Origin: an uncultured Ignavibacteriota bacterium
GTDB taxonomy: Bacteria; Bacteroidota; Ignavibacteria; Tepidaquicellales; Tepidaquicellaceae
Direction: 5' to 3'
Assembly: GCA_937959065.1 (NCBI GenBank)
Contig: CALGOI010000379.1
Span: 2,556 to 66,555 of the forward strand
DNA length: 64,000 bases
This document shows, one piece after another, positions 9,395 through 24,379 of the stretch (positions are counted from its first letter, which is position 1; each line of letters opens with the position of its first letter). Below the pieces are notes generated by a model. That model ran no database searches and was not told the origin of the DNA. It saw only the letters and a list, made by a program, of their open reading frames with translations. The translations under genes were made by a program, and so were the position numbers.

Positions 9395-9650
9395 GACGAT
9401 ATTCAGCGGCAATGTTAACTTGAATCGGGTTGATAATAGGGAGCCCTGGTTCTCGGTGTGTGATAATTGCGGATCGGTCATGGATAAGGTGTGTATGTGC
9501 CAGATAGAGATGGATTACGACAAAGACGATGAGGATTTGTGTGTACATGCTGTGGCTATTGCAATGCAATATGTAAGGAGCCGGGCAATGATAAGGGCCC
9601 TTGCTAAGGAGATAATGGAATATTCTAACAATAAAAATCAACAACAATGA
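9381..9650 (+). CDS. Cys-rich hypothetical protein inserted between groES and groEL
   Basis: 89-aa ORF overlapping both chaperonin genes. It contains CDNCG...CMC...C. Confidence 0.45.
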   Translation: MEKAKTIFSGNVNLNRVDNREPWFSVCDNCGSVMDKVCMCQIEMDYDKDDEDLCVHAVAIAMQYVRSRAMIRALAKEIMEYSNNKNQQQ

Positions 9651-11260
9651 TCAAGGATTTACACTTTGGAGATGATGCCCGCAAAAAACTAAAAGCGGGA
9701 GTGGATAAATTAGCTAAAGCGGTTAGTGCTACATTGGGTCCTGGGGGCCGTAATGTTCAGATAAGCAAACCTTTCTCACATGCAGTAATAACCAAGGACG
9801 GGGTTTCTGTGGCTCGGGAGATATCGTTTGCTGATCCTATCGAGGACATGGGAGCTCAGGCTGTTAAGGATGTAGCTATCCGTGCCAATGACTTAGCGGG
9901 TGATGGTACTACTACGGCTACGGTGCTTGCCCAGGCAATATTTAATGATGGGCTGAGGTTTATGGCCAACGAGTGTAATCCGATCGAACTGAAGAAAGGC
10001 ATAGACCGTGCAGTGAAAGATGTCGTGGACCGACTTAGCAAGATGGCTGTGGACGTGAAGGGTGATTTTGACCGGATTGCTGAGGTTGGAACAATATCAG
10101 CCAACGGGGACACAGAAATAGGGAGTTTAATTGCTTCAGCCATGAAGAAGATATCTGACAACGGTGTTATAACCATAGAGGATAGCGACACCTCAGAAAC
10201 CACTATTGAGGTGGTTTCCGGGATGCAGATCGAAGCCGGATTCATCACACCGTACTTCATCAACAACCGTGAGAAGGTGAGGTGTGATCACAAGGATGCC
10301 CACATTATCTTGTATGATGATGAGTTGAGTCTTATCAAGGACGCTATGCAATTATTAGAGAGGCTTGTGGACACGAAGAAGCCTATTGTAATCATAGCTA
10401 AGGCCATAAATGGAGAGGCGCTTGGCACCATGGTGAAGAATACGGTAGAGGCATCGTATCCTTTTGTGGCTATTGAGGCACCTGGATATGGGGAGGAGCG
10501 CACACAAATACTTGAGGACATTGCATCATTGACTGGCGCTCAAGTTATCAGCAAGGAGTTTGGATCCTCCCTTAATGATGCGGATGACGAAATGATTGGA
10601 AAGGCAACCTCTATAGAGGTGGGCCGATTTACCACGGTGATCGTAAATAACGAAAACACGAAGGCAGTCAAACAACGTGTTAAATTATTGGAGAGCCAAT
10701 TAAAAAGTTGCAAGACGCATGAAAAGCCACGGTTAAAGAATAGGATTGCCAGGTTAGACGGAGGTGTTGCAGTAATGCGAGTGGGGGCTGAGTCTCAAGT
10801 TGAGCTCAAGGAGAAGAAGGATCGGGTTGAGGACGCCTTAAACTCAACACGGGCAGCCGTAGAGGAGGGTATAGTTCCAGGTGGCGGTGTGGCCTTGCTG
10901 AGGGCTGCTTCAGGTCTAAAGCCAAAGGGAGCTAACTCTGATCAGAAATCAGGCTACAGCATTGTTCTTAGTGCTGTTAGAAAGCCCATGTCATGTATAG
11001 CTTCCAATGCCGGAAAAAACGGAGACATGATAGTTGGGGAAACAGAGAAGATGGAAGGCAACGTTGGATGGGATGCCCGTGCTGAAGAGTATTGTGACCT
11101 GATGAAGGCCGGGGTTATTGATCCTGTTAAGGTAACTCGGGTCGCTTTAGAAAAGGCTGCGTCTGTATCAAGCATGCTTTTAACGACAGAGTGTGTTATT
11201 TCATTTGACGAGGAGAAGCTGAAAGATGACATTGTTAAGCAAAGTCAGTTGTCTCGCTAA
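9647..11260 (+). CDS. groEL: Chaperonin GroEL (Cpn60)
   Basis: 537 aa with ATLGPGGRNV, AGDGTTTATVLAQAI, and VAVMRVGAESQVELKEKKDRVEDALNSTRAAVEEGIVPGGGVALL. Confidence 0.95.
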   Translation: MIKDLHFGDDARKKLKAGVDKLAKAVSATLGPGGRNVQISKPFSHAVITKDGVSVAREISFADPIEDMGAQAVKDVAIRANDLAGDGTTTATVLAQAIFNDGLRFMANECNPIELKKGIDRAVKDVVDRLSKMAVDVKGDFDRIAEVGTISANGDTEIGSLIASAMKKISDNGVITIEDSDTSETTIEVVSGMQIEAGFITPYFINNREKVRCDHKDAHIILYDDELSLIKDAMQLLERLVDTKKPIVIIAKAINGEALGTMVKNTVEASYPFVAIEAPGYGEERTQILEDIASLTGAQVISKEFGSSLNDADDEMIGKATSIEVGRFTTVIVNNENTKAVKQRVKLLESQLKSCKTHEKPRLKNRIARLDGGVAVMRVGAESQVELKEKKDRVEDALNSTRAAVEEGIVPGGGVALLRAASGLKPKGANSDQKSGYSIVLSAVRKPMSCIASNAGKNGDMIVGETEKMEGNVGWDARAEEYCDLMKAGVIDPVKVTRVALEKAASVSSMLLTTECVISFDEEKLKDDIVKQSQLSR

Positions 11261-11343
11261 CGGTTTTGATAAAATGCAGGCGGGATAATGAGCCAAAAAG
11301 CGGCAAATAAGACCATAGCACCCGCTTCATTTTATCTTGTGTT
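11259..11343 (+). repeat. AAC...GTT-closed imperfect hairpin (site A0) overlapping the groEL stop
   Basis: TAAC spans the stop codon. Pairings are GATAAAATG (11268-11276) with CATTTTATC (11328-11336), GCGGG (11280-11284) with CCCGC (11321-11325), and AAC (11259-11261) with GTT (11341-11343). The arms are homologous to site A2. Confidence 0.6.
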
Positions 11344-11357
11344 ATGGCGCGTTTTTT

Positions 11358-11669
11358 ATGGATTACATAGACAATATTGTCCTAAAATTAAAAAGACAGT
11401 ACTCGAAAGACGAATTAGTCTCCTACCTCGCAAAAAAGCAAAGCGAATTGGAAACGGAAGTTGGGATGTTAAAATCTGAAAGAGACGAGTATCAGTATAA
11501 ATATGAGAAGCTCTTAAAGGCTGATAATGCTGTAAAATCAAGAGCTGGTCAATTGAAGCTGTACCAAAATATGAAAGCAGAAATCAAAGATTTGCGGGAA
11601 AAGTGCAGAAAACTTGAATTAGACAACTCCAAGCTATTACAGAAGGTGGTTCGCTTAAATGCGCCATAA
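11358..11669 (+). CDS. Coiled-coil hypothetical protein
   Basis: 103 aa from the ATG at 11358 (the ORF track starts at an upstream TTG). Heptad-like charged sequence. Confidence 0.45.
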   Translation: MDYIDNIVLKLKRQYSKDELVSYLAKKQSELETEVGMLKSERDEYQYKYEKLLKADNAVKSRAGQLKLYQNMKAEIKDLREKCRKLELDNSKLLQKVVRLNAP

Positions 11670-11721
11670 CGGATGGGTACATGAAGCGTATGAGGTACGA
11701 ATATGATTTATGTACCGTGTT
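11668..11721 (+). repeat. AAC...GTT-closed hairpin (site A1) overlapping a stop codon
   Basis: TAAC is at the stop. GGTACAT (11676-11682) pairs with ATGTACC (11710-11716), and AAC pairs with GTT (11719-11721). It overlaps an alternative 8-bp palindrome, GTACCGTG/CACGGTAC (11712-11738). Confidence 0.45.
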
Positions 11722-11760
11722 ATACATTGGCACGGTACGAAACAGATAAAACTTTATTAA

Positions 11761-12166
11761 ATGAACGAAAGTAGCAATAACAGTTTTTTGTGGGATGGCA
11801 AAAATGACCCGATAGGGGCAACAGTACTAAGCTTGTTTGATGGCATAAGTTGCGGACAACAAGCATTAAAAGAACTTGGAATACCTGTAAAAGAATACTA
11901 TGCAAGTGAGATTGACAAGTATGCAATTAAGGTAACGCAAGAGAACCACCCTAATACAATACAGCTCGGAAGCATCACAGAACTTGAAACAACTAAACTT
12001 CCTAAAATTGATTTGCTTATAGGCGGTAGCCCCTGCCAAAGTTTTAGTGTTGCTGGGGATGGAAGTGGTTTTAATGGTAAAAGTGGTTTGTTTTGGGAAT
12101 ATGTGAGAATATTAAAAGAAACAAAGCCTAAATACTTCTTGCTTGAAAACGTTAAAATGAAAAAGG
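11761..12166 (+). pseudogene. DNA (cytosine-5)-methyltransferase, N-terminal fragment (interrupted by an IS)
   Basis: Motif I (LFDGISCG), motif IV (GGSPCQSFSVAG) and motif VI (LLENVKMKK) are present. The reading frame then runs into IS sequence and stops at 12243. Confidence 0.85.
12159..12166. repeat. Target-site duplication, left copy (GAAAAAGG)
   Basis: An identical 8-mer abuts the other end of the insertion at 15430-15437. Confidence 0.75.
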
Positions 12167-12192
12167 GGCAATCATATAGGTGTTGGGACAGG
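12167..12192. repeat. Left terminal inverted repeat of the IS
   Basis: GGCAATCATATAGGTGTTGGGACAGG aligned against the reverse complement of 15404-15429 (GGTGATTATATATCATTTGGGACACG). Confidence 0.6.
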
Positions 12193-12235
12193 ATTTTACG
12201 CCTGATTTACACACACATCAGCAGAAACGACAAGT

Positions 12236-12367
12236 TCACTTAGGCTTGTCGTCCTTCTTTTTAGCTGAATCTTCATCAGCGTCTTTCAAGGAAGCCTTTA
12301 ACACATCAGAGAACGATGCGTTAACCTTTACTTCTTCTTCCTGATCGGACTTTTTCTCTTTAGACAT
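12236..12367 (-). CDS. Small acidic/lysine-rich ORF (43 aa), speculative
   Basis: MSKEKKSDQEEEVKVNASFSDVLKASLKDADEDSAKKKDDKPK. It is below the ORF-track cutoff and has no recognised domain. Confidence 0.2.
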   Translation of the reverse strand: MSKEKKSDQEEEVKVNASFSDVLKASLKDADEDSAKKKDDKPK

Positions 12368-12433
12368 ATTGCTAAGATACAAAATTGAAAATCGTAGTTT
12401 TACGTTAGTACATACAAACTTGCGTCAGCTTTC

Positions 12434-12554
12434 TTCGCTCTGAAATCTGGTAAATTTCAACTGACACGAAAAGCAAGCTGTGGCACCTCGTCATTACGGG
12501 CGTGGGGCTGCGCTTATTACTTCGTGTCAGGGCTTACCAGAGCCTCAGAGCGAG
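12434..12554. other. Long (~120 nt) three-segment imperfect hairpin inside the IS
   Basis: Pairings are CGCTCTGA (12436-12443) with TCAGAGCG (12545-12552), CTGGTAA (12447-12453) with TTACCAG (12534-12540), and CTGACACGAA (12461-12470) with TTCGTGTCAG (12521-12530). It lies between the divergent small ORF and the lipoprotein gene. Confidence 0.5.
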
Positions 12555-12629
12555 TAGAAGTTGTTGGCTCTGCGCTCGTCCGTTTATAAACCCACCATTA
12601 GGAGCCGGTGGTGCACAATAATCAAGCGT

Positions 12630-13349
12630 ATGAAAAAGTGTAAATTACTTGCTTGGGCAATAACTGGCGTTGTTTTCACTTCTTGCTCAGTCGGAAGCCA
12701 TGTAAGCAATGGGTCTCTTATTCAAAAGAGGAAGTACAACACCGGGTTCGCATCATTCAAATCACACACAGATCGTTCCGGTGAACTTAATCAAACCGCA
12801 TCCATATCGGATGACTATTTTATTGATGCTGTTAGCGATGACAACTATGAGGTTGAGGTTCATGAGGTCATAGAATCTCCTTATTCAACTTACGTGGTGC
12901 CGGAGCAGAATCAGGAAGTTTCTCCTGAGCAGTCTTTCGAATTGCCCATTGCTTCAAAAACGGAAGACGGCATTACAACTACCCTGATTCCACAGGAAAG
13001 ACTAATGGCAAAGGAAGATGGTGGCGGCTCAGGAGCAATGCGAACTATTGGGTGGGTGTTAATCGGTCTTGGATTATTGATACTGCTCTTTCTAAGCATA
13101 CTAATTGGAGCGCTACTTGCTTTGCTTGGTCTTATTTTCGTGTTGGCCGGAGGCGTTGGTGGTAATCAAAAGAAAGAAGATACTGGTGTTTTGCAAGAAG
13201 TGGTGTATTTGAAGAACGGCAGTATTATTCGTGGCACCATCATGGAGCAGGTTCCGGGAGTTTCTCTAAAAATTCAAACGGCAGACGGCAGTGTGTTCGT
13301 GTATAGCATGGATGAGGTTGAGAAGATAACCAAGGAGCCAAAGAAATGA
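12630..13349 (+). CDS. Putative lipoprotein/membrane protein (IS passenger)
   Basis: Taking the ATG at 12630 gives MKKCKLLAWAITGVVFTSCS, a lipobox-like signal. There is a long hydrophobic stretch (IGWVLIGLGLLILLFLSILIGALLALLGLIFVLAGG) and a C-terminal LKNGSIIRGTI...DGSVFVYSMDEVEKI module. Confidence 0.55.
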   Translation: MKKCKLLAWAITGVVFTSCSVGSHVSNGSLIQKRKYNTGFASFKSHTDRSGELNQTASISDDYFIDAVSDDNYEVEVHEVIESPYSTYVVPEQNQEVSPEQSFELPIASKTEDGITTTLIPQERLMAKEDGGGSGAMRTIGWVLIGLGLLILLFLSILIGALLALLGLIFVLAGGVGGNQKKEDTGVLQEVVYLKNGSIIRGTIMEQVPGVSLKIQTADGSVFVYSMDEVEKITKEPKK

Positions 13350-13621
13350 TTTTAACCCTAAACTTTAATAAAAGCATCAGGACATTACAGTCAATCATGA
13401 CCATACCTCATGACTTTTTGAAAATTTCTTGATGTTCTTCTTGATGCTATCAAGAAGTTTCATAACTTTACCGCAAAGAAAACGCCCTCACAAGTTTTGA
13501 CGGACTCAACGAGGGCGGATTCTTTCAGAAGCCTTGAGTGGTAAACCCCTTCCGTTGTAAGGAAGATCGGGTCAATACCACAAAGGGCCTTCTGTTGGCT
13601 AAGTTAACAAAAAGCAACAAC

Positions 13622-14074
13622 ATGGAACAGTCAGTAAAGGTTATTAAACAAGAAATCGAAATCCATAAGGCAGAGATAAGGCGGCACAAGTCGGAAATAG
13701 AAAAGCTTGGGGCGGCACTTCAAATATTGGTTGGGAATGGTGGCTCCGCCACTCACTCTGCTGATAATGAAAAAAAAAAACCCCTACACTTTAACACCCT
13801 TACATTCGCACAGTTGATGCAACACATTTTTTCTGATGATGTAACAAAAACAGGAAGGCAGTTATACGATGAGTTTTTGCTTATCACAGGAAAAACAAAT
13901 TATAAGTATCCAGCATTTTCTGCCCGGCTTTCTGAGAGGGCGGTCGTTAAGCTAATCAGCAGACATGAAGAAAGCGATCGGCCGATTCATCAAAGGTATA
14001 TCTATGGCCTTAAGGAATGGTTTAATAATGACGGATTGAAAGAGGAATACAGAAAAAGAATAAAATTTGAATAA
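13622..14074 (+). CDS. Hypothetical protein (IS passenger) containing an A11 tract
   Basis: 150 aa from the ATG at 13622, with a coiled-coil N-terminus. The ORF track begins at an upstream GTG. Confidence 0.5.
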   Translation: MEQSVKVIKQEIEIHKAEIRRHKSEIEKLGAALQILVGNGGSATHSADNEKKKPLHFNTLTFAQLMQHIFSDDVTKTGRQLYDEFLLITGKTNYKYPAFSARLSERAVVKLISRHEESDRPIHQRYIYGLKEWFNNDGLKEEYRKRIKFE

Positions 14075-14114
14075 TCGCCAATATGAGGCTTGTTCCTATT
14101 ATAATTAATAAAAG

Positions 14115-14131
14115 GGGCCGAAGCCCCTTTA
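14115..14131. terminator. Intrinsic terminator hairpin
   Basis: GGGGC-cgaa-GCCCC followed by TTT, 40 nt after the 13622-14074 stop. Confidence 0.6.
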
Positions 14132-14230
14132 AAATACCCTCTAACGGGGTTTCGCTGAAATAGTGCTGTCTCTTGTAAAGGCTGGCCTCATCTAACCAAA
14201 TCCGCAAGAGTAAACCCGTTAGAACCAAGA

Positions 14231-14253
14231 GGGGGAGTTCGCTCCCCCTTTTT
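14231..14253. terminator. Intrinsic terminator hairpin (bidirectional position)
   Basis: GGGGGAG-ttcg-CTCCCCC followed by TTTTT. It lies between the convergent passenger genes and the transposase stop. Confidence 0.65.
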
Positions 14254-14276
14254 CATGCACCAAAGATACGATAATC

Positions 14277-15191
14277 TTACTTCTGTATCAGATTCTCATA
14301 CTTCAGCCGTCTGCCATCGCTTTGAAAGATTGCTTCTGCAAAGCGTTCTTCCTGAGTATCCTCTTTAGCGTTGTATCGGTAGTTGAACTCGTCCAAGTAC
14401 CGAGATAGATGCTTGTCCGATACATGATGGTAGATTCCTATTATTCCCCGCTTCAATAATGAGAAGTAACCCTCAATAGTATTGGTATAGATCGAACCTC
14501 TCACGTATTCTTCTGCGGAATGATTCACTGAATGGTGTTGGTAGTAACCATTCAGGTTCTTATACATTCCGTTTTCATCAGTTATTACCACAGCCCCAGG
14601 CTTCACGTTCTTTAGCATTACCGGAACCACGTCCTTGGCTTTTCCGCTTTCCACAGCCTTAGATCGCACTTTACCCTCTCGCTGAACAAGGCCAACAACA
14701 GGTGTCTTACTATGCGCGCCTTGTTTGCCAATGCGCTTGCTCTTATGCTTATTGCTCTGTTTGCCGCCCACGTAAGTCTCGTCAATCTCAACTACTCCTT
14801 CCAATGATTGCGGAAGCTTCTCTTTTAGCATTTCCCTTACCCGGTGAAGAACAAACCATGCCGACTTCTGAGTAATACCGAGATCACGGGCTAACTGGCA
14901 GGAACTAATACCCTTCTTGTGGCTCGTAATTAGGTAGATGGCAATAAACCATTTACGAAGTGGTATTTTGGTGTTCTCGAATATGGTGCCCACTGTAACG
15001 CTGAACTTCTTGTGGCACTCCTTATTTGCGCATTTAAACCTCTTACCATTCTCAATCTTATAGACTTTCTTGCTCTTGCAGTATGGGCAGTTGGCCTTAC
15101 CGTTAACCCAACGAAGTTTAGCGAGATAGTCCCGGCAGGTTTGCTCATCCTTAAATGTCTCTGTTAGTTGTATAATGTTCTCGAACTCCAT
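14277..15191 (-). CDS. IS1595-family transposase (zinc-ribbon plus ISXO2-like DDE domain)
   Basis: 304 aa. The N-terminal zinc ribbon is CPYCKSKKVYKIENGKRFKCANKECHKKF, followed by an HTH (ISSCQLARDLGITQKSAWFVLHR) and DDE-region motifs VEIDETYVGG, VVITDENGMY and NTIEGYFSLLKR. Confidence 0.9.
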   Translation of the reverse strand: MEFENIIQLTETFKDEQTCRDYLAKLRWVNGKANCPYCKSKKVYKIENGKRFKCANKECHKKFSVTVGTIFENTKIPLRKWFIAIYLITSHKKGISSCQLARDLGITQKSAWFVLHRVREMLKEKLPQSLEGVVEIDETYVGGKQSNKHKSKRIGKQGAHSKTPVVGLVQREGKVRSKAVESGKAKDVVPVMLKNVKPGAVVITDENGMYKNLNGYYQHHSVNHSAEEYVRGSIYTNTIEGYFSLLKRGIIGIYHHVSDKHLSRYLDEFNYRYNAKEDTQEERFAEAIFQSDGRRLKYENLIQK

Positions 15192-15196
15192 TGTCT

Positions 15197-15331
15197 TTAG
15201 TTGTTGTCGGCTATCTTCTTTAATTGTATTCGGATATAATTACTAAGGCTCCGTTCGTCAGCATTGGCCAGCTTTTGCAACTTATCCTTTAGCTCCTTAC
15301 TGACTCTTATTACTATCGTTTCTTCTTTCAT
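15197..15331 (-). CDS. Ribbon-helix-helix (CopG/Arc-like) small protein upstream of the transposase
   Basis: 44 aa: MKEETIVIRVSKELKDKLQKLANADERSLSNYIRIQLKKIADNN. It shows the beta-strand/helix/helix pattern typical of RHH proteins. Its stop is 5 nt before the transposase ATG. It is not in the ORF track because it is under 60 aa. Confidence 0.5.
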   Translation of the reverse strand: MKEETIVIRVSKELKDKLQKLANADERSLSNYIRIQLKKIADNN

Positions 15332-15403
15332 GGTCACTTGTTATACATTGTATAACGATGTAATACATAAAAGGTTGCCTTAATTGTTGGGTTTTTCACG
15401 GGG

Positions 15404-15429
15404 CGTGTCCCAAATGATATATAATCACC
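15404..15429. repeat. Right terminal inverted repeat of the IS
   Basis: See the left terminal inverted repeat; 18/26 matches by hand alignment. Confidence 0.6.
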
Positions 15430-15437
15430 GAAAAAGG
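15430..15437. repeat. Target-site duplication, right copy (GAAAAAGG)
   Basis: Identical to 12159-12166. Confidence 0.75.
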
Positions 15438-15994
15438 AGTGGGAACAAGTTATTACCGATGCTTTAGGGGTAGAACCTTTTGAAATACCGAGTAATTTGG
15501 TTAGTGCTCAAAATAGAGTAAGACTGTACTGGACTAACTTTCCGCTAACATTGCCGAAAGATAGGGGTATTAGTTTGGGTGATATTATTGAAAAGGATTT
15601 TGTTTTTACAAGCAAGGCGCAAATCATACTTAGTACGATGTATAAAGAGAATGCTAAGAGTATGTTTAAGCGAAATAAAAAAGGCTTACTTGCTTGCTCT
15701 AAACAATGCTCTGAATGCAAGTTTATAAAACCAAAAAGCAACACAGTAAGAACTGGAGGTTTGAAAAGCTACCAACGCCACGAATGGGATTCAGTTTGCA
15801 AATTACACCTTCGCAAATTAACACCTTTGGAATGTGAAAGATTACAGACCTTACCTGATAATTATACGGCTTGCATAAGCAATACGAGACGATACCAAAC
15901 AATAGGAAATGGTTGGACTGTAGAAGTTATTAAGCACATCTTTAATTGCCTGATAAGGCAAGCGAGGGGAGAAAAAACTGTTATTGCGGAATAA
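15438..15994 (+). pseudogene. DNA (cytosine-5)-methyltransferase, C-terminal fragment
   Basis: The frame continues EWEQVITDALGVEP...SAQNRVRLYW (motif VIII)...LTPLECERLQTLPDNYT...TIGNGWTVEVI (motif X). There is no in-frame ATG at its 5' end. Confidence 0.85.
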
Positions 15995-16038
15995 CCGCAG
16001 TAACTTTGATTAAATGCACAGGTGTAGTGCTTGTGTAT

Positions 16039-16126
16039 AACGGTTTGGCTAAAATGTAGTAGCCGACCAACGAGAATTTGAATTATTAACCTGATGCTGC
16101 AAAGGCTATTCATTTTAGCTTTTGTT
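16039..16126 (+). repeat. AAC...GTT-closed imperfect hairpin (site A2)
   Basis: AAC-GGTTTG-GCTAAAATG (16048-16056) pairs with CATTTTAGC (16111-16119)-TTTT-GTT. The arms are homologous to site A0, with a compensatory change (A0 has GAT/ATC, A2 has GCT/AGC). Confidence 0.6.
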
Positions 16127-16150
16127 GTAGCATCGTAAAGCGAACGGATT

Positions 16151-16426
16151 ATGAACGAAAATGAAAGGATTGGAACATATTGTGAAAAATGTGGAGGGCC
16201 ATTTTGTATTTGCGAAGAAACCGAAGAAATAAAAAGGCAGGCATTAATAGAAATGAAAGATGATTTTAAAAGACAAGCAAATATTTGGAGGGGCAAAGCG
16301 GAAGAAGTGAAAGAATCAAGCAGACATAGATACTACCAGGGCAAAGCAATGGCTTATAAATACACCTACAATGCTTGCATGGAATTATTGTACGGAAAAG
16401 ATTGGAGAAAAACGCAGGAGGGGTAG
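16151..16426 (+). CDS. Hypothetical protein (CxxC...CxC)
   Basis: 91-aa ORF. Its stop lies 16 nt before the inverted-repeat site. Confidence 0.5.
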   Translation: MNENERIGTYCEKCGGPFCICEETEEIKRQALIEMKDDFKRQANIWRGKAEEVKESSRHRYYQGKAMAYKYTYNACMELLYGKDWRKTQEG

Positions 16427-16442
16427 TGAGCGTATGTGCTAC

Positions 16443-16505
16443 AACGATTGTATCAAAACACCCACACTGAAAATCAGAAAGTTATGAATGAATACACAAA
16501 TCAAT
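16443..16505 (+). repeat. Inverted repeat, left copy (IR-L); contains the recombinase start codon
   Basis: 16443-16488 is identical (46/46) to the reverse complement of 22929-22974. The extended alignment gives 60/63. It begins AACGATTG and contains GTTATGAA, with the ATG at 16484. Confidence 0.9.
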
Positions 16506-17368
16506 TCAGGCGATTTCTTTTGGGTAAAAGGTTGGCGCAATCGACAATGAACAGTTACCTAAGCCACTTAGATCACTACTTGCGTTGGTGTTATTCAGAG
16601 GGTGTGCCACCGGAAGATATGCCAACAGAGGCGTTGCTGGAATGGATGAGCCGACCCGGCTCACCAAGCACGGTAAGCCAACGAAGAACAACACTCGTTC
16701 ACTTGTATGAATCGGTGCTTGGCCAAGGCTTTAAGACTCTGCCGTTGCCCTACCCGAAAAAGAATGTTAGATTGCCCCACCACTTAACACCTCAACAGGT
16801 GGCGCGAATCATTCAGTCAGTAACAAACACCAAGCAACGCCTGGTCTTGCAAATAATGTACGCTCTTGCGCTCCGGGTAGAGGAAGCGGTAAGAATAAAG
16901 AGGGAGGATATTTACGAAAACTACGACACCGAAACGGGAGAGATGTACTATGAACTTAGGGTTGTTGGGAAAGGAAACAAGGAAAGGCGTATTCCAATTC
17001 CTGACCAAACGGTTGCAGCCATGTTTTCGCACATCAAATCCAAGCACACAGAAAGCGGCTATTTGTTCAAAGGTCAGTTCAAAGGACATTACAGTTACGG
17101 AAGCATCCGAAATGTATTCAACCGGGCGAAGGAGAAAGCGGAAGTAACTACGCCCGGAAGCACTCACCTACTCCGAAAGAGCAGAATAACCCACCTTGTA
17201 AATGCCCAATTGAACGACAGGACTATTATGCTAATGGTAGGCTGGAAGAACCAAAAGACCATAGAACACTACCACCGTGCTAACACCTCATCAATGAGAA
17301 AAGCAGTATCAATGGTTGACGAATCACTATTGCTAATTGAGAAGACACACCATAAACTTATAGCATGA
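16484..17368 (+). CDS. Tyrosine site-specific recombinase, Xer-like (short, no obvious arm-binding domain)
   Basis: 294 aa from the ATG at 16484. It has an N-terminal SAM-like core-binding region (STMNSYLSHLDHYLRWC) and the catalytic pattern R (LALRVEEAVRIKRED), K (GKGNKERRIPI), HxxR (HLLRKSRITHL) and H/Y (TIEHYHR). Confidence 0.85.
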   Translation: MNEYTNQFRRFLLGKRLAQSTMNSYLSHLDHYLRWCYSEGVPPEDMPTEALLEWMSRPGSPSTVSQRRTTLVHLYESVLGQGFKTLPLPYPKKNVRLPHHLTPQQVARIIQSVTNTKQRLVLQIMYALALRVEEAVRIKREDIYENYDTETGEMYYELRVVGKGNKERRIPIPDQTVAAMFSHIKSKHTESGYLFKGQFKGHYSYGSIRNVFNRAKEKAEVTTPGSTHLLRKSRITHLVNAQLNDRTIMLMVGWKNQKTIEHYHRANTSSMRKAVSMVDESLLLIEKTHHKLIA

Positions 17369-17958
17369 TAATAGGTATATCAGGAAAGATTGGCTCTGGC
17401 AAGGACACCGTGGCCGGTATCATACAAGAACTAACCAATGACCGGTGGGAAGCAAAGAAGTATGCCGACAAGCTGAAGCAGGTGTGCCACATTGTTTGCG
17501 GAGGAGACATAAGAGATCAGTTTTCCCGGGAGGGCAAGGCCATTTACATATCCTCGTTTGGAATGACCATAGGCGAGATACAGCAGTTAGTGGGCACCAA
17601 TGCCATGCGTGACAACTTTGACGAAAACGTGTGGGTTAAAGCATTGATGAATGATTATGTGCCAAGCAAGGGGGGAAATGTTCCCAACTGGATAATAACT
17701 GATGTGCGCTTTCCTAATGAAGCGGCCGTCATAAGGAAAAATGGCGGATACCTATTAAGGCTGGAAGGAGACCCTGTTGACGTTAGAAAGAACTCTGACA
17801 GGGACCTAAGTCATCCTTCTGAAACATCTCTTGATGATTACCGGTATTGGGACGGAATAATATACAATACCGGTAGCATGGACGATCTAAAGAGGTATGT
17901 CGAAAACTTTCTTGTTGATGTCGAGAATCGCTACGACATGAAGTTCAATTGGTTATAG
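17365..17958 (+). CDS. Deoxynucleoside monophosphate kinase-like P-loop protein
   Basis: It has a P-loop (GISGKIGSGKDTVA) and ITDVRFPNEAAVI, as in phage dNMP kinases. Confidence 0.6.
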   Translation: MIIGISGKIGSGKDTVAGIIQELTNDRWEAKKYADKLKQVCHIVCGGDIRDQFSREGKAIYISSFGMTIGEIQQLVGTNAMRDNFDENVWVKALMNDYVPSKGGNVPNWIITDVRFPNEAAVIRKNGGYLLRLEGDPVDVRKNSDRDLSHPSETSLDDYRYWDGIIYNTGSMDDLKRYVENFLVDVENRYDMKFNWL

Positions 17959-18039
17959 CCTGGCTGTATCTCTTGTGGCAAGGCCCTCGTCATATATTGG
18001 CGGGGGTTTTTCGTAAATTGCCGTCTTAAAACACCGAAA

Positions 18040-18519
18040 ATGGATATGAAGATCCCGAAGGTTACATTGAACTCAGTGTTGAAGATGGTTGTAACACTAC
18101 TTGTCACCCTTTCAGCGTTGGCCACGTCTTATATTGCACTGATAGAACCAAGAATAGTGGTGCTGATAGATGAGCGTATTGACTCTCAAAAGGCCCACAA
18201 TGTTGCAAATGGCAACATGAAACTAAGCGAGAAACTATCTACGCTACTGAATGTGGAGCCCGACTTGGTGGCCAATGAGGTATCACAGATGTACTTCTGG
18301 TACAAACAGCGAGTTGTGATGGACGGGAAGCTGAACGATTTTGTCAACTTCTGGGATGAATGGGAATATGTTGGCGTATTAAAGAACAAGATAACCGGTA
18401 AGTTCAGGTACTTTCCTGGAGTGGGGTATGAGAACCATTACCGGGTGTACATGTACAATGATGGATGGGCGTACTATCCTGAAGGAAACGATGACATTTA
18501 CCAGTGGGTGTATCCCTGA
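18040..18519 (+). CDS. Hypothetical membrane-anchored protein
   Basis: 159 aa with an N-terminal hydrophobic segment (VVTLLVTLSALATSYIALI). Confidence 0.5.
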   Translation: MDMKIPKVTLNSVLKMVVTLLVTLSALATSYIALIEPRIVVLIDERIDSQKAHNVANGNMKLSEKLSTLLNVEPDLVANEVSQMYFWYKQRVVMDGKLNDFVNFWDEWEYVGVLKNKITGKFRYFPGVGYENHYRVYMYNDGWAYYPEGNDDIYQWVYP

Positions 18520-18716
18520 CAAATATGAAAATACCAGACCATCATAGGGCGCATGTTGAAGAACTTAAGCGTATTATGATAGAGGATGATCAATACAGGG
18601 ATGTTCCTTACGCAGAACTTTTTCTTCTGGTAAGTTTCTTTGGGGTGTGGCCGGAATACCGGGCAAAGAAAAGGGCCTCGTGGATAGTGGTGCCTTACGG
18701 AATATACCTTAACTAA
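18504..18716 (+). CDS. Hypothetical protein
   Basis: 70-aa ORF overlapping both neighbours. Confidence 0.4.
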   Translation: MGVSLTNMKIPDHHRAHVEELKRIMIEDDQYRDVPYAELFLLVSFFGVWPEYRAKKRASWIVVPYGIYLN

Positions 18717-19246
18717 TGCTGAAGGGTCGGCCGTGTGAAGCTCCGGGATGTTCAAACCCAAGATGGGGAGGAGGTTATTGTGCCCATCATCAAATGCTTA
18801 GGGAAGACAAAGCTCTGCCCACAGGGCTATCAGTGGGAAAACGTCAAATGCGTTCGTTTAAGGGCTTAAGGCCCAAGAAAAGGCTAAATCCCATGTCATC
18901 TAAGCAGAAAGCCCAGGTGAAGGAGAAAAAGGCGGTGTATGAGCTTATGAAGTCAATTCGTAAAATGGTGTGTACAGGATGCGGGAGGATTAGCGATCCG
19001 GAATTACTTCAGCATAGCCACATAATACCCGTGTCTCGCTGGAAAGAGGGAGAGATAATTATAGAGAACATAACGTATCATTGTAGTGATCTGGCCAACG
19101 GCTGCCACTCAAGGTGGGAAACACACAATCCAAACCACACCAAGGGGATGCTTGATTACGACAAGAACATGAAATACATATCAAGTGTGGATGTTGAATA
19201 CTACCACTTGTTGATAAGTAAGCTTCCTTCTAATGAAACATTATAG
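18716..19246 (+). CDS. NinG/Rap-like or HNH-type zinc-finger nuclease candidate
   Basis: CEAPGC...CAHH at the N-terminus, and CTGCGR...QHSHIIPVSRW...NITYHC...NGCHSRWE in the C-terminal half. Confidence 0.4.
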   Translation: MLKGRPCEAPGCSNPRWGGGYCAHHQMLREDKALPTGLSVGKRQMRSFKGLRPKKRLNPMSSKQKAQVKEKKAVYELMKSIRKMVCTGCGRISDPELLQHSHIIPVSRWKEGEIIIENITYHCSDLANGCHSRWETHNPNHTKGMLDYDKNMKYISSVDVEYYHLLISKLPSNETL

Positions 19247-19310
19247 AGGGTTTGTGCGTAATTTGTAGTGTTGTTACTCCGGTCCTTCATGGGCAATGTC
19301 ACAACAAATA

Positions 19311-19343
19311 GAACCGGGGCGTGTGTTGCAACAACCCCGGTTC
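19311..19343. terminator. Bidirectional terminator at the convergence point
   Basis: GAACCGGGG (19311-19319) pairs with CCCCGGTTC (19335-19343). It lies between the convergent genes ending at 19246 (+) and 19349 (-). Confidence 0.7.
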
Positions 19344-19348
19344 TTCCT

Positions 19349-19873
19349 TTACACCCACGGGGCTTTGTTTCGAATAACGTTTTTCTTGTATTTACGGGAT
19401 AAGGACCTGGCAATCCTCTTATACTGATCGGGAGTGGCTGGCCGCCTGTGTAGTTCCTGAGCTTCCCGGTGCAGGTCAACTATATGCTTGTCTGATTTAT
19501 CATGGTAATCGTAATAGAGGATTCCCGCATATTCTGGAACTTCTTCAGGATTAACCATCTCATAAGGCATTACATAGTAGAACTTGGATGGAACGTTGCC
19601 GTCCAAGTAGTGCCTTTCTGTGCCATCCATGACTACCGTGGTGCCGGTGCCGGATAAGTGAAGGTGCTTTTCTTTTTCGAAGTCCTTTTGAAAGTCGGCT
19701 ACCGTGAGCTTTACTTCGAACTCATATATCATCTCAACTGATGAAAGTGAGATGAGGTCTGATTCCCAATTGAACAGGTAAACATTAGGACAGGCTACCT
19801 TGTGTTTTTTGCCTGAGAGGTAGTTGTAAGTCCCACGTATTACATCCGCTTCAGTAATCTTCCCTTGCGCCAT
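19349..19873 (-). CDS. Possible PD-(D/E)xK nuclease (MmcB-like)
   Basis: 174 aa. WESDLISLSSVEMIYEFEVKLTVADFQKDFEKEKH resembles the D...E-x-K core followed by the ADF..D motif. Confidence 0.35.
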   Translation of the reverse strand: MAQGKITEADVIRGTYNYLSGKKHKVACPNVYLFNWESDLISLSSVEMIYEFEVKLTVADFQKDFEKEKHLHLSGTGTTVVMDGTERHYLDGNVPSKFYYVMPYEMVNPEEVPEYAGILYYDYHDKSDKHIVDLHREAQELHRRPATPDQYKRIARSLSRKYKKNVIRNKAPWV

Positions 19874-19892
19874 ATTCGGCTAAAGATACGAA

Positions 19893-20228
19893 TTAGGGTG
19901 TGTTGTTGTTGTTGGGCAGGGCAACTAAGTGCCAAAGACGTATGCCGGGGACGCAGAGAATGATTTGAAGTGCACAATATAGTGAAGCGGCAATTTGCAT
20001 GTGGCCCAGCATTTGGTCTTTACAATTATTAAAGAACCAAATGTTGAGAATAACAAGTGCGGTAGTGGCCGCTAATATTCCGAACACACCCCATAGGCCC
20101 GCCCATCGAAATCTCTTTTCGTATGTCACTTTAGGTTCGTCATCGTAGTGTTTTTCGAACACCATCATTTGATACGGATTTACTATTTGACATCCTGTGT
20201 GGTGCCTTACATAATTACTCTTGTTCAT
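19893..20228 (-). CDS. Hypothetical membrane protein
   Basis: 111 aa with two or three hydrophobic segments. Confidence 0.45.
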   Translation of the reverse strand: MNKSNYVRHHTGCQIVNPYQMMVFEKHYDDEPKVTYEKRFRWAGLWGVFGILAATTALVILNIWFFNNCKDQMLGHMQIAASLYCALQIILCVPGIRLWHLVALPNNNNTP

Positions 20229-20893
20229 ATATAGTTTGGTTTTCCGTTAGTGCTCAATATTTCAAATTCCACTACCCAAACCCATGGGTTGGACTTCCAT
20301 GATTCTGCTCCGTTTATCTCGATCCAAAGGGTTTTGAATGACTCCGTTGGCTCCGAAGTTGCTCCTCCGGTTATGTAATTTCGATATAGTGAGTACGAGT
20401 CTGTGTTGGCTATATAAGCACCAGCTGGCTCTATTCCCTCTTCTATACAATCCCTTGGGGATATGCTTTGCGCCTTTTCAATTAGAACCTTCTTTATCCT
20501 AAGCCATATTCTGGCGACCGGCTTTGGCATGTGTATGGATGGTTTCCATCCTGTTTTTGTACTGAAGCTGGGATCAGGGCCGTAATCAGCCTTGTAAGCC
20601 ACCTCGTAATTGTTTGGGGTGTCTGCAAATGCCCTGTAAAACGATTCCCGAACCCAAAGAAAGTCTCCGGGATTTCCGTATGGGCACTTATGGAAATCAA
20701 CAAGAGTGTCTTTTCTATGATACATTACACCAAACTGTTTTTCCTCGTCCACTTTCTCTCCGGTAGTAACAGCGATGTGCTTGCCTTCCTTGGGCTGAGG
20801 TTTGATGGTTCTTCTGGTCTGTGTTTTCCTGCCGTCAAGTATGGCCCTAACCATACTTGTGGAGAATAGGATTGGTTTCTCTTTTGTCATCAT
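20225..20893 (-). CDS. ASCH-like phage protein
   Basis: The N-terminus PILFSTSMVRAILDGRKTQTRRTIKP is a widespread prophage signature, usually annotated as an ASCH domain. Confidence 0.4.
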   Translation of the reverse strand: MMTKEKPILFSTSMVRAILDGRKTQTRRTIKPQPKEGKHIAVTTGEKVDEEKQFGVMYHRKDTLVDFHKCPYGNPGDFLWVRESFYRAFADTPNNYEVAYKADYGPDPSFSTKTGWKPSIHMPKPVARIWLRIKKVLIEKAQSISPRDCIEEGIEPAGAYIANTDSYSLYRNYITGGATSEPTESFKTLWIEINGAESWKSNPWVWVVEFEILSTNGKPNYI

Positions 20894-21135
20894 GTAAGCT
20901 TTATGTATCCTGATTTAATGGCTTTGAGCACCAATAGGGTGTCGTTGTTCTCATTGAAAATGGCCCTGAGTTTTTCCCGGTAATTGAGAACGGTTTGGTA
21001 AGAGCAGTTATTCCACTCTGCGGCTATGTTCTTGATCGATTCTCCCTTGGCCAACATCATTAGCATTTCTTTAGTTAGGCCGTTGAAGTCAGGGTGGTCG
21101 CTCGGGTCAAGTTCCTTTACTTCAATTTCTATCAT
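20890..21135 (-). CDS. LuxR/GerE-type helix-turn-helix protein
   Basis: LTKEMLMMLAKGESIKNIAAEWNNCSYQTVLNYREKL matches the LuxR C-terminal HTH pattern. Confidence 0.45.
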   Translation of the reverse strand: MIEIEVKELDPSDHPDFNGLTKEMLMMLAKGESIKNIAAEWNNCSYQTVLNYREKLRAIFNENNDTLLVLKAIKSGYIKLT

Positions 21136-21677
21136 ATCGGTTTATTTGAAAGTAAAACATCTCTGTTAATCCCATAGATGCGTGAATCCATGGGTTGTAA
21201 TATATCTATCCACTTGGTTCGAACGATGAGGTTGCCATTCTCATCATGGGTGTATTTGCTCATGGTGTCATGTACCACCCACCAGCCGTTTGCCGGGGGC
21301 ATGTGCGGAGAATAAACGTGTATGGTATCGCCATAATTAAAGGGACCTCCCCATCTTGTGAGGAGATCTCTTGACAGTGCGCACCACCGAAGGCTTCCTT
21401 GCTGTAAAGCCACGGTATCGATATACCCACCGTCTGCTGTGTTTAGTGGAGTACTGTCGCACTGCGCTATGGTTGGGTTGTATTTAGTGAGGGTAACATG
21501 ATGTAGTTCCTGGTGGTAGTGGTGTATTACCGTGTCGTGAACTACAACGCAGGTGTCTTTTTTGGCCAGTAATGCGCTGAGGTTTTGGTTCTGCTCACAC
21601 TGGTGGGTTGCTCCGCATAGCAGGAATATGATTAGACCTATAAGGACGAAGCGGTATGTCTTTTGGGATGAGGTCAT
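21132..21677 (-). CDS. Secreted/anchored 3D-domain (DPBB-fold) protein, putative cell-wall lytic
   Basis: It has an N-terminal hydrophobic anchor. TKYNPTIAQCDSTPLNTADGGYID...GDTIHVY resembles 3D/RlpA-like domains. Confidence 0.4.
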   Translation of the reverse strand: MTSSQKTYRFVLIGLIIFLLCGATHQCEQNQNLSALLAKKDTCVVVHDTVIHHYHQELHHVTLTKYNPTIAQCDSTPLNTADGGYIDTVALQQGSLRWCALSRDLLTRWGGPFNYGDTIHVYSPHMPPANGWWVVHDTMSKYTHDENGNLIVRTKWIDILQPMDSRIYGINRDVLLSNKPI

Positions 21678-21720
21678 TGTTCTGCTTTGGTTATTGTTTC
21701 GGGATCAACCTCTTGGTATT

Positions 21721-21954
21721 TCATTTCTTGGAAATTACTTTTATTGTTACCCTTCCCCCTCCGAAAAGAGGCATTGTGTCTCCGTGTTTGGCTCTAATAG
21801 CGTGTTTATTGTGGTTAATACTACACCATTGGCCAATCTCATTTACCCATCCCACATAGGCATCTGGTCTTTTGTTGGTCAGCCGCATCTTCCTTGCTGT
21901 AACATGATCTCCAGTAGGAGCCAAGACATATCCGGGAGGGGCTTCAGGGGTCAT
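21721..21954 (-). CDS. Hypothetical protein
   Basis: 77-aa ORF. Confidence 0.4.
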   Translation of the reverse strand: MTPEAPPGYVLAPTGDHVTARKMRLTNKRPDAYVGWVNEIGQWCSINHNKHAIRAKHGDTMPLFGGGRVTIKVISKK

Positions 21955-22125
21955 GTTAGTCGTGTTGGTTAATAATCATTAAGTTGATTTCGTTTATTCG
22001 TGCCTCAATATTCTTTTCGATCACAGCGCACCTCATTAGCTGCCCGGGCCGAACATCTTTTTTAATGCCCCGAACACGCTCCAGGCGCTTTGTAAGGCAC
22101 TCTTTCCTATGGATGAGGTATTCGC

Positions 22126-22302
22126 TCACTCCTTGCCCCGTATATAGCCCTTATCTTCTCCTGTATCACGGGCAGCTATCATCTTTTCACGTAGCCTGAT
22201 CTCCTTGTCGAGCAGGCAGCAGGGCCCCACGCCCCGGAAACAATCCTCGGCATAGTGTTCTTTGCCACACCTCCTGCACTTTATCTTAACTTTATACGTC
22301 AT
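22126..22302 (-). CDS. Small Cys-rich hypothetical protein
   Basis: The start was moved to the internal ATG (MTYKVKIKCRRCGKEHYAEDC...) so that it does not overlap the upstream gene, which ends at 22316. Confidence 0.35.
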   Translation of the reverse strand: MTYKVKIKCRRCGKEHYAEDCFRGVGPCCLLDKEIRLREKMIAARDTGEDKGYIRGKE

Positions 22303-22315
22303 TTTTCTTACGTGT

Positions 22316-22696
22316 TCAACAACGATTTTCACTAAACGTACTATACACCACGGCCACCTCTTTTGAGAACGAAATAGCCCCAATTCCAAGCCGTGTGTTT
22401 CTTACGCTTTTAAGGGTGATGTCGGCACCATGCCTGCTCACCACAATGTATTGCTCAGTGCCCACACCACTAATCACTACATCATCGGCCTCAATGTGCC
22501 TTTCTTCCTGCTCTATCTTTCCATGAACAACAAGGTAAACGTTGGTGTCTGTGGATCCCCACAGCCTAAGCCACCAATTGCTTGATGGTTCCTGGTAATA
22601 GCACACTTCTACGGTGCCTATATTGATCTTGGCGGTGTTGCCTCTGGCCAGCGTGTGGCATTCTCCGGGAGTTAGGGGGTAGTCGTAGATGCTCAT
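22316..22696 (-). CDS. Hypothetical protein
   Basis: 126-aa ORF with a 4-nt overlap with the upstream ORF. Confidence 0.45.
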   Translation of the reverse strand: MSIYDYPLTPGECHTLARGNTAKINIGTVEVCYYQEPSSNWWLRLWGSTDTNVYLVVHGKIEQEERHIEADDVVISGVGTEQYIVVSRHGADITLKSVRNTRLGIGAISFSKEVAVVYSTFSENRC

Positions 22697-22887: not shown

Positions 22888-22911
22888 GTTTTAAGGCTTT
22901 AGGTGGTCATT

Positions 22912-22974: not shown

Positions 22975-22983
22975 ATGTGCAAG

Positions 22984-23310: not shown

Positions 23311-23333
23311 AAGTCATTTGTATTTTGAAAGTT

Positions 23334-24377: not shown

Positions 24378-24379
24378 AG

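Follow-up and report, generated by a model that had tools for sequence, protein, structure and literature searches.

The 64,000-nucleotide stretch analyzed here in its entirety (hereafter the window; part of contig CALGOI010000379.1, from the assembly of an uncultured Ignavibacteriota bacterium) is a tailed-phage genome that encodes a DnaB-like helicase, a large terminase, a portal and virion proteins, as well as GroES and GroEL, and it carries two arrays of small genes, array A (11259-16442, + strand, three cassettes) and array B (26920-22975, - strand, eight cassettes). Our reading, to which we give a probability of about 65%, is that these arrays are stores of mobile gene cassettes served, in an integron-like manner, by a Xer-like tyrosine recombinase of the phage itself. 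The system is a phage-borne analogue of an integron and not a true integron, as the recombinase did not pass as a member of the integron integrase (IntI) family and the cassette genes have the opposite polarity. In both arrays a unit is made up of AACGG, an imperfect hairpin, TGTT and then an open reading frame (ORF). All 11 cassette ORFs point to a docking site, of which one copy lies beside the recombinase gene, and each hairpin is located 5' of its ORF, sometimes holding the start codon. The sites are numbered A0 to A2 and B0 to B7, and each cassette (A-c1 to A-c3 and B-c1 to B-c8) consists of one site and the ORF that follows it. No near relative of the phage was found among GenBank phages by megablast of positions 9000-17400, and an exact look-up of the groEL product returned no matching record.

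The decisive evidence for cassette movement is a set of deletions in contigs from sister samples. Two such contigs, L053 and L054, which are separate assemblies, are 99.5-100% identical to the window and both lack exactly positions 24771-24378 (394 nt), that is, B-c6, comprising hairpin B5 and a 113-aa ORF. L053 also lacks exactly 26435-26151 (285 nt), corresponding to B-c2, comprising hairpin B1 and a 48-aa ORF. The breakpoints of both natural deletions share AACGG only. As each deletion removes a hairpin together with the ORF downstream of it, the mobile unit is that pair and the exchange falls within the AACGG of the sense strand. An earlier note on this DNA, which had proposed for arrays A and B a single family of recombination or structural sites and convergence on the two copies of one terminal site, had suggested comparing homologous phages for differing gene content, searching databases for the element beside other genes and a statistical test of covariation; the first of these comparisons thus finds near-identical genomes that differ by whole cassettes with their breakpoints at AACGG cores.

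Homology between more distant contigs breaks at the same core. Between L022 and L023, a stretch of 1227 nt that begins at the docking-site TAAC and takes in the recombinase gene has 100% identity, and immediately upstream of this the two contigs have unrelated cassettes. Site A2 and the adjoining 5' untranslated region (UTR; 16038-16148) are 97% identical in L017, with the identity starting at TAAC, and the ORFs that follow are unrelated (91 vs. 66 aa). Both the A-c3 and the L017 cassettes end in the same 21 nt (AGTGAGCGTATGTGCTACAAC) up to AAC, after which comes the docking site in the window and another hairpin in L017. The ends of A-c3 (GTTGTAGCATCG...TGCTACAAC; GTTGTAGCATCGTAAAGCGAACG...GTGAGCGTATGTGCTACAAC) were identified in eight viral contigs of IMG/VR (L046-L052 and L017), so that the element does adjoin unrelated genes elsewhere and is not confined to groEL terminators. 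Compared with window positions 16124-16445, the cassettes of these contigs have identical ends, the 5' one of 25 nt and the 3' one of 21 nt, and the ORFs that they enclose are unrelated and 177-322 nt long; we conclude that one type of site serves unrelated ORFs, as in chromosomal integrons. The hairpins that precede these ends differ, some being homologues of A2 and some unrelated to it; GTT is therefore a second point at which homology breaks, with re-assortment of hairpins and ORF modules.

Complementary cassette ends and predicted site folds

Each of the 11 cassette ORFs in the window is bracketed by an inverted repeat (GTT plus 5-20 nt at the start, 5-20 nt plus AAC at the end), and the first bases of all 11 cassettes are complementary to the inverse core of the site that each carries. 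Such repeats are the signature of an integron cassette, in which an imperfect palindrome is split near one end upon insertion. The earlier note had mentioned neither these repeats nor the pairing of each hairpin with the ORF downstream of it, the link to the recombinase gene or the insertion in the methyltransferase gene described below. In an all-against-all comparison of 13 intergenic regions, a flank repeat score of 5 or more was obtained for 9 of 11 adjacent site pairs vs. 5 of 158 non-adjacent pairs. The two exceptions were B5 and B7, in which the 3' arm and GTT lie within the next ORF and the start codon is in the loop. The 5' and 3' arms of a site pair far better with each other (median score 10) than when arms are swapped among sites (4.4 +/- 1.5), hence it is the structure that is conserved and not the sequence. 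A generic finder of AAC...GTT hairpins returns background scores of 9-10 outside the arrays, so only the chained and adjacency tests are discriminating. Our detector of linked-cassette chains found runs of nine and three cassettes in the arrays and at most two elsewhere in the window. The arrays also differ from the backbone in G+C content (29-40 vs. 43-49%).

The sites of the two arrays form one family, as the earlier note had suggested. Every site in the window reads AACGG (AACGA once), 5' arm, loop, 3' arm, TGTT, and this architecture and its orientation relative to the ORFs are identical in arrays A and B, with one kind of site lying between all eight ORFs of array B on the coding (minus) strand and with the terminal site duplicated in inverted orientation. 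The 13-mer AACGGTTTGGCTA at the start of A2 recurs exactly at 24365-24377 on the minus strand, where it belongs to site B6. A compensatory change between the arms of A0 and A2 (GATAAAATG/CATTTTATC vs. GCTAAAATG/CATTTTAGC), which had been taken in that note as covariation, is real; on its own it is a single event, and it is now extended by a family of seven A2-like hairpins from six genomes. Their alignment has 18 consensus pairs, eight of which have changes on both sides, with the first 17 pairs unbroken, two G·U columns conserved and an inner stem of exactly 11 bp. A0 and A2 themselves have ~20 nt in common at each end, and their centers and flanking sequences are unrelated, meaning that they did not originate as a local duplication that included coding sequence.

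The outer stem, formed between the end and the start of a cassette, was assessed over 36 cassettes, drawn from the window and from ten further loci. Of its cells, 82.9% are paired vs. 59.3% in shuffles, and its covariation score is 0.633 vs. 0.192, a value reached by 0 of 500 shuffles (controls in which the arms were slid gave 0.10-0.21). Positions 4-9 have three to five pair types apiece. Both stems, therefore, covary. Outer-stem position 11, counted from GTT (position 2 of the arm), is almost never a Watson-Crick pair: the T of the 3' arm is invariant (36/36) and is opposite G in 25 cassettes. Mismatches in the outer stem are G·T 36 times vs. A·C four times, and such one-sided wobble pairing indicates that the molecule that folds is either the sense strand or RNA.

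When cassette ends were joined and folded as single-stranded DNA, eight of nine sites produced a two-tier stem, in which an outer stem of 8-15 bp that contains AAC/GTT is separated from the inner stem by an internal loop with ~5 nt on one side and 3 nt on the opposite side. All nine joined sites were more stable than their shuffles (z from -2.5 to -5.5). The long-range stem that the earlier note had drawn for A2 is not used in the minimum-energy RNA fold of A2 by itself and is present once the cassette ends are joined. The hairpins that link the arms are 44-203 nt long, with loops of up to ~165 nt, some of them containing ORF starts, and in the sites of the window 4 to 11 nt separate AA|C from the inner arm. 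The 3'-terminal 11 nt of the cassettes fit ATKnnnnnTAA and are followed by a 6-nt spacer, the inner arms are off this arm consensus, and the consensus of the cassette box is GTTRYR and not GTTRRRY. We also considered the sites as terminators or promoters and dropped both, as neither count exceeded that of shuffles: terminator-like hits numbered 19 vs. 15.9 +/- 3.8 in shuffles, with none of 11 sites among them and no T-run, and promoter-like sites numbered 34 vs. 42.3 +/- 5.5. Two chance-level matches to Rfam families were the only ones at E<=1 across 9000-28000, neither of them at a site.

Array A begins at the groEL-like chaperonin gene (9647..11260, + strand; Pfam Cpn60_TCP1, E = 1.8e-65), a backbone gene whose stop codon TAA (11258-11260) overlaps the AAC of A0, just as the earlier note had placed it (85 nt, 11259-11343). 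The possibility that groES-groEL is itself a cassette was dropped, as no GTTAGCGAG partner was found upstream. Cassette A-c1 (11259..11667, +) comprises A0 and a coiled-coil ORF (11358-11669); its flank repeat is GTTATGGCGCGTTT/AAATGCGCCATAAC and its joined ends folded with z = -3.4. Site A1 (11668-11721) of cassette A-c2 (11668..16038, +) opens at TAAC, the stop of the coiled-coil ORF, again in agreement with that note, and precedes a C5 DNA methyltransferase gene, with GTTATACA/TGTATAAC as the flank repeat. Cassette A-c3 (16039..16442, +; flank repeat GTTGTAGCA/TGCTACAAC) follows the methyltransferase with site A2, the 88-nt homologous element (16039-16126), and a 91-aa ORF (16151-16426).

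The cassettes of array B lie on the minus strand. B-c1 (26436..26920) has site B0 (26920-26801) and a 109-aa ORF (26775-26446), and B-c2 (26151..26435) has B1 (26435-26312) and a membrane-like ORF (48 aa, 26295-26149), with 13 of 14 flank repeat positions matching. The ORF of B-c3 (25522..26150; B2, 26150-26063; ORF, 26044-25520) is a DUF1643 protein (Pfam, E = 1.3e-35). Joined-end folds gave z = -5.3 for this cassette and z = -5.4 for B-c4 (25140..25521), which comprises B3 (25521-25466) and a 92-aa ORF (25428-25150). B-c5 (24772..25139; flank repeat GTTGTGGTG/CACCACAAC) consists of B4 (25139-25028) and a 71-aa ORF (24998-24783), and B-c6 (24378..24771) of B5 (24771-24569), which has the ORF start in its loop, and a 113-aa ORF (24721-24380). 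B-c7 (23372..24377) has a flank repeat of 23 nt, with a score of 15 in the adjacency test, and joins B6 (24377-24334) to a PAPS-reductase-like ORF (24283-23405; Pfam PF01507 and phrog_424). In B-c8 (22975..23371; flank repeat GTTATGTGC/GCACATAAC) the start codon of the 108-aa ORF (23310-22984) is inside the hairpin loop of B7 (23371-23252). A weaker candidate unit of 210 nt, GTTGTGTG...CACACAAC, is present at 27127-26918 (minus strand) and has a small helix-turn-helix-like ORF, an assignment made by eye with no family search run, making the distal edge of array B uncertain.

Recombinase gene and docking sites

The recombinase (16484..17368, + strand, 294 aa; Pfam Phage_integrase, E = 1.5e-24) has intact catalytic R, K, H, R, W, and Y positions. 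Its best NCBIfam models are XerA/XerD-like, and its score with the IntI model TIGR02249 is 74.6 bits vs. a cut-off of 265. The alignment of a recombinase family profile with the integron integrase VchIntIA (2a3v) is broken into two parts, and 24 positions of the profile face 66 residues of IntI, leading us to conclude that the IntI-specific insertion (the I2 helix region) is absent. XerA and XerD each align to the same profile in one continuous match. Homologues at 33-39% identity were found in viral or metagenomic contigs only, and relatives in 185,579 species-representative bacterial and archaeal genomes had just 24-28% identity, which argues against a role in lysogeny. A scan of viral contigs with peptides from the single recombinase sequence found no relatives; an alignment-based scan then yielded L022 and L023.

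Array A ends, as the earlier note had observed, at docking site copy L (IR-L; 16443..16505, +; AACGATTGTATC...), an attI-like element that starts exactly at AAC, 41 nt upstream of the recombinase gene, and overlaps the first 22 nt of that gene. Copy R (IR-R; 22912..22974, - strand) differs from it at three positions. Together they are a 63-nt inverted repeat, 95% complementary, in which identity starts exactly at AAC and at which both arrays end, and A0 and the docking site have a flank score of 7.5, a weak signal. The 22 nt of IR-R (22912-22932, minus strand) that correspond to recombinase coding sequence in IR-L read MNKYTN* and look like a decayed recombinase start, suggesting that the second docking site arose via inverted duplication. 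The idea that IR-L might itself be an AAC...GTT hairpin was ruled out, as it does not fold (z = +0.86).

A docking motif, AACGAnnGTATAnnnGAAT...TGAAAATCA, is present ~45 nt upstream of the recombinase start in 12 homologous loci. Its conservation starts at AAC, and the sequence 5' of that point is unrelated among the loci. In most homologues the site consists of a cassette arm, CGAkkG and TATAGAGGAAT, an 11-6-11 layout. Ten of the 12 loci extend far enough upstream to be assessed, and in every one of them the bases 5' of the docking AAC have an inverted GTT partner 238-1000 nt upstream. Per locus, the observed score was matched by 0-10 of 200 shuffles, and controls taken downstream scored no higher than 4.5. 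The cassettes that abut these ten docking sites are unrelated to one another, and the upstream genes are small, with the same orientation as the recombinase gene. An exact scan of viral contigs for the window's own docking site found none. As a separate observation, the metagenomic phage contig L001 (75.8 kb) has tyrosine recombinase genes of two different subfamilies (6578-7567 and 10001-10888) that flank a 2.4-kb cassette stretch, with an AAC...GTT hairpin directly after the first gene.

The two docking sites enclose a 6.4-kb backbone segment (16506..22911) with a plus-strand block (the recombinase, a dNMP kinase and others) and a minus-strand block. From its layout this segment could be invertible, and inversion would leave the directions of transcription consistent; no inverted arrangement was seen in the contigs recovered, as L053, L055, and L057 all have the orientation of the window. 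Where the two blocks converge there is a G+C-rich hairpin, AACCGGGGCG...CAACCCCGGTT (19300-19345), that looks like a bidirectional terminator.

The methyltransferase gene of A-c2 is in two pieces (11761-12166 and 15430-15994), each matching the NCBIfam model dcm TIGR00675, with an insertion sequence (IS) between them. This IS1595-family element (12167..15429, - strand, 3263 bp; Pfam DDE_Tnp_IS1595, E = 2.5e-47; NCBIfam, E = 1.3e-64) is flanked by an 8-bp target duplication, GAAAAAGG, at 12159-12166 and 15430-15437. In a contig from a sister sample (L058) the methyltransferase gene is intact with a single GAAAAAGG, an empty site, and the insertion is therefore polymorphic in the phage population. 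The element is no part of the cassette system. Its cargo is a transposase gene (14277-15191, -), two passenger ORFs (12561-13349 and 13538-14074, both +) and a small ribbon-helix-helix-like ORF (15197-15337, -), the last assigned by eye with no family search run. Just upstream of the latter ORF, and within the element, is the perfect palindrome GTTATACATTGTATAAC (15340-15356), which may be an operator; it has 11 nt in common with the GTT side of site A1, a match that may be due to chance (~0.03 expected per window). Similarly, a 17/18 match of the passenger region (~13350) to site B0 is at chance level. Elsewhere in the genome, collagen-like GGN-NNN-NNN triplet repeats (47344-47526) are found inside a 367-aa ORF (47236-48339) that probably encodes a fiber or other structural protein.

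Proposed exchange pathway and its alternatives

On the ORF-sense strand, a cassette as we envisage it would read AA|C-GG, imperfect hairpin, TGTT, 11-nt arm, 5'UTR and ORF, and inverted arm (ATKnnnnnTAA). Cassettes would pass through a circular form, in which the joining of the ends would allow the arms to pair into an outer stem with AAC/GTT, followed by a small asymmetric internal loop and the hairpin; for B-c6, the predicted circular junction is GCGGTATTGTAGCTAA|CGGACAAGGCTATGCG. The folded single ORF-sense strand would be the substrate and the phage recombinase the probable catalyst, exchanging strands at TAA|C. Exchange between two cassette sites would lead to excision or loss, and capture would result when a cassette site recombines with the docking site, AA|CGAkkG-TAT..., which lies shortly before the recombinase gene. 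The second, inverted docking copy would serve array B and could also permit inversion of the 6.4-kb segment. As the ORFs point to the docking site, their transcription would come from the phage operons that precede them, in array A from groES-groEL. Cassettes would presumably be exchanged between co-infecting phages. A classical cassette model, which would assign the hairpin to the ORF before it, place the crossover at G|TT of the sense strand and treat IR-L as the last attC, was rejected as the main mode because the identity of the inverted repeat and of L022/L023 starts at AAC, ORF starts lie in loops and the deletions take a hairpin with its downstream ORF.

The placement of the cleavage at TAA|C follows from the 11-6-11 layout and the ATKnnnnnTAA arm, which fit the Xer family, and is an argument from resemblance. 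In E. coli dif, the arms are assigned to the recombinases and cleavage occurs at the border of arm and spacer. The phage arm with its 6-nt spacer matches the XerD arm of this site read inward, ATTTAACATAA. The dif sequence itself was confirmed from the literature (PMC3025954).

Several points weigh against our reading. The covariation statistics are partly circular, since most of the cassettes came from a detector that requires positions 4-8 to be paired; the adjacency test, the replication in ten loci, the natural deletions, and stem positions 11-15 provide support that is independent of this detector. The joined site of B-c1 does not adopt the expected shape in its minimum-energy fold. The docking site of the window is divergent and has only AACGAkTGTAT and TGAAAATCA in common with the consensus of the homologues, and the recombinase family is possibly under-sampled, as the protein and locus searches need shared exact words. 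A core of five bases could in principle allow deletion by slippage or microhomology, yet both deletions end on predicted cores. The breakpoints at GTT are not explained by crossover at the sense-strand AAC alone, and could have been produced by exchange on both strands, by a duplex mechanism resembling that of pdif modules, or by homologous recombination within the conserved cassette ends. Lastly, the recombinase has no I2 helix segment, making a duplex mechanism quite possible. The I2 segment is held to have enabled single-strand recombination by the integron integrases (PMC7790495).

The first alternative to be weighed is accordingly one in which the same recombinase acts on duplex DNA: the AAC and GTT junctions would be 28-bp Xer-type sites (11-bp arm, ~6-bp spacer, 11-bp arm), folding would be irrelevant, and ORF and hairpin modules would alternate between inverted sites like the pdif modules of Acinetobacter plasmids. 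Along with the missing I2 region, the fit of the arms and 6-nt spacer, the exactly 11-bp inner stem of the A2 family, the resemblance of the docking site to a canonical 11-6-11 duplex site, and the occurrence of breakpoints at both GTT and AAC with re-assortment of ORF modules and hairpins are all in keeping with it. We nevertheless regard it as unlikely, because the arms are specific to each cassette and yet pairwise complementary, which speaks for selection on base pairing and not for a shared protein-binding sequence. In addition, the 4 to 11 nt between AA|C and inner arm are too variable a spacing to sit well with it, and the G·T pairs conserved on one strand only would be meaningless in duplex DNA.

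Homologous recombination at conserved intergenic palindromes, as proposed for T4-type cassettes, could also shuffle genes, with the recombinase having some other purpose (e.g., the 6.4-kb inversion). The existence of conserved 20-110-nt elements that unrelated phages have in common around unrelated ORFs, the RecT or RusA genes in related contigs, and the position of a 63-nt inverted repeat beside a recombinase gene, which is the classic layout of an invertible segment, lend themselves to this explanation. It is, however, quite improbable in our judgment: the 5 nt shared at the ends of the natural deletions are too few, the 100% identity between L022 and L023 gives way to none precisely at TAAC, ten loci have the same linkage of recombinase, docking site, and cassette, and the complementarity of each ORF's ends is left unexplained.

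It is very doubtful that the sites are RNA elements only (terminators, processing sites or stabilizers of polycistronic mRNA with no role in DNA rearrangement), although the conserved wobbles are G·U on the sense strand and the hairpins lie in 5'UTRs, some holding the start codon in the loop; terminator-like T-runs and matches to Rfam families are absent from all sites, pairing of the outer stems would need to span entire ORFs, in one case 4.3 kb, and the DNA breakpoints at AACGG and the link to the recombinase would go unexplained. RNA may have a role in addition to DNA recombination. An ordinary lysogeny module, with the recombinase as phage integrase, the AACGA site as attP, and the variable genes as morons of a prophage end, would account for the proximity of gene and site, since integrase genes normally adjoin attP and variable cargo beside attachment sites is common in temperate phages, but is scarcely credible given the 24-28% identity of the only relatives found in the 185,579 genomes, the phage DNA on both sides of the site in every locus, the two inverted copies in one genome, which do not suit attP, and a variable region composed of site-bounded cassettes that are gained or lost singly.

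Returning to the cassette reading, we raise tentatively, as a possibility we consider somewhat less than even, that the system represents a separate phage lineage of integron-type capture, in which a Xer-like enzyme without I2 joins folded sense-strand hairpins to a duplex docking site and shuttles counter-defense genes, such as those for DNA-modification enzymes, between co-infecting phages. In a literature whose coverage was incomplete, and in which a 2023 paper by Qi et al. was the only relevant one, we came across no previous account of a recombinase outside IntI that is encoded by a phage and accompanied by a docking site and cassette arrays. Were such a lineage to exist, capture through hairpin sites would have arisen more than once or would predate the I2 helix in IntI, and attC-like clusters in phages that have no integrase would be the footprint of such a system and not stray parts of bacterial integrons. 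The system would also be a dedicated route for the gain and loss of single accessory genes by phages. A cytosine methyltransferase, a PAPS-reductase-like enzyme, and a DUF1643 protein are among the products encoded by the cassettes of the window, relatives have Mom-like and other methyltransferase genes, and natural variants that differ by single cassettes are already present in public samples.

Comparison with known systems

Accessory gene shuffling in virulent phages is one point of comparison. Arbiol and colleagues reportedly described, in 2010, promoter/stem-loop (PeSL) mobile regulatory cassettes in T4-type phages, the shuffling of which is said to be ascribed to homologous recombination between promoter-containing repeats. 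The window resembles these in having small accessory ORFs with conserved stem-loops between them in a plastic region of a virulent-type phage. It differs from them in that there is no excess of promoter-like sites, the breakpoints share 5 nt only, and a site-specific recombinase is linked to the cassettes.

The pdif modules and the Xer-dependent mobile elements (IMEX) depend on the host XerC/XerD, acting at sites that all follow one consensus, and a module, flanked by alternating inverted sites, carries its arms along when it moves. Common to these elements and the phage arrays are a Xer-family recombinase, 11-nt arms that end in TAA beside a spacer of ~6 nt, and an alternation of modules, in the phage of ORF modules (GTT...AAC) and hairpin modules (AAC...GTT), both boundaries of which are homology breakpoints. 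In contrast to pdif modules, the phage encodes its own recombinase, its arms are cassette-specific and pairwise complementary, hairpins of 44-203 nt connect its sites, and the docking site has a fixed place beside the recombinase gene.

Clusters of attC sites lacking an integrase (CALINs) were reported in 17 phages and treated as attC sites of bacterial integrons (Qi et al., 2023, PMC9892861). One of these sites, P12002L_attC1, was called by HattCI and was the only tested site that was not recombined by IntI1 (PMC9892861). We find that this site (TGCTAACGG...GGCTAAACGG...CCGTTTTAGCCATTGTTAGGC, in Polaribacter phage P12002L) belongs to the same family as the sites of the window; it is flanked by two methyltransferase genes and is on the ORF-sense strand, and the methyltransferase and Mom-like cargo is also similar. 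Unlike the window, which has a recombinase, a docking site, and natural cassette gain and loss, P12002L has no integrase gene. Our chain detector found runs of six and four cassette-like units in P12002L, chains that at a flank score of 5 are unreliable in so A+T-rich a genome. As a further observation, attC2 of P12002L (our L008) is present as two near-identical copies of ~70 nt (~29170-29240 and 37195-37265), each ending a cassette-like run, and the attC2 described as divergent appears, as read from its reverse complement, to be the same kind of near-palindromic site called on the other strand. A phage recombinase system of the kind proposed here would explain the attC-like clusters reported in virulent phages.

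Integrons themselves have much in common with the phage arrays. A tyrosine recombinase gene lies beside the docking site and reads away from it, the cassettes are small, have mostly a single ORF, and are arrayed in one orientation, and each cassette begins with a sequence complementary to the far box of the site that belongs to it. As imperfect palindromes, the sites combine AAC...GTT boxes with two stems, an outer and an inner one, between which there is an unpaired spacer, and with a loop that varies, following the layout of R box, unpaired spacer, and L box of attC. Vibrio VCRs are likewise a single type of site common to unrelated ORFs. In integrons it is the attC bottom strand (5'-...AA|C, hairpin, GTT...-3') that is cleaved on the 5' side, and the phage crossover maps to AA|C, on the 5' side of the hairpin and on one strand, in the same geometry.

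There are also differences from integrons. The phage recombinase is Xer-like and without the IntI-specific insertion, and the phage sites have GTTRYR, an 11-nt arm, and a conserved G·T where the integron box is GTTRRRY. The phage ORFs are on the strand that apparently folds, with the hairpin upstream of the ORF and the ORFs reading towards the docking site, whereas the ORFs of integrons read away from attI, with the Pc promoter in the intI/attI region and attC downstream of the ORF. Integrons have been regarded as bacterial, and lately archaeal, and as the province of one recombinase clade; a phage Xer-like enzyme with attC-like arrays would widen this picture and would offer a tractable outgroup for the origin of integrons from Xer recombinases. 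Finally, the setting of the phage system is its own, a tailed-phage genome in which two arrays are built on two inverted docking sites.

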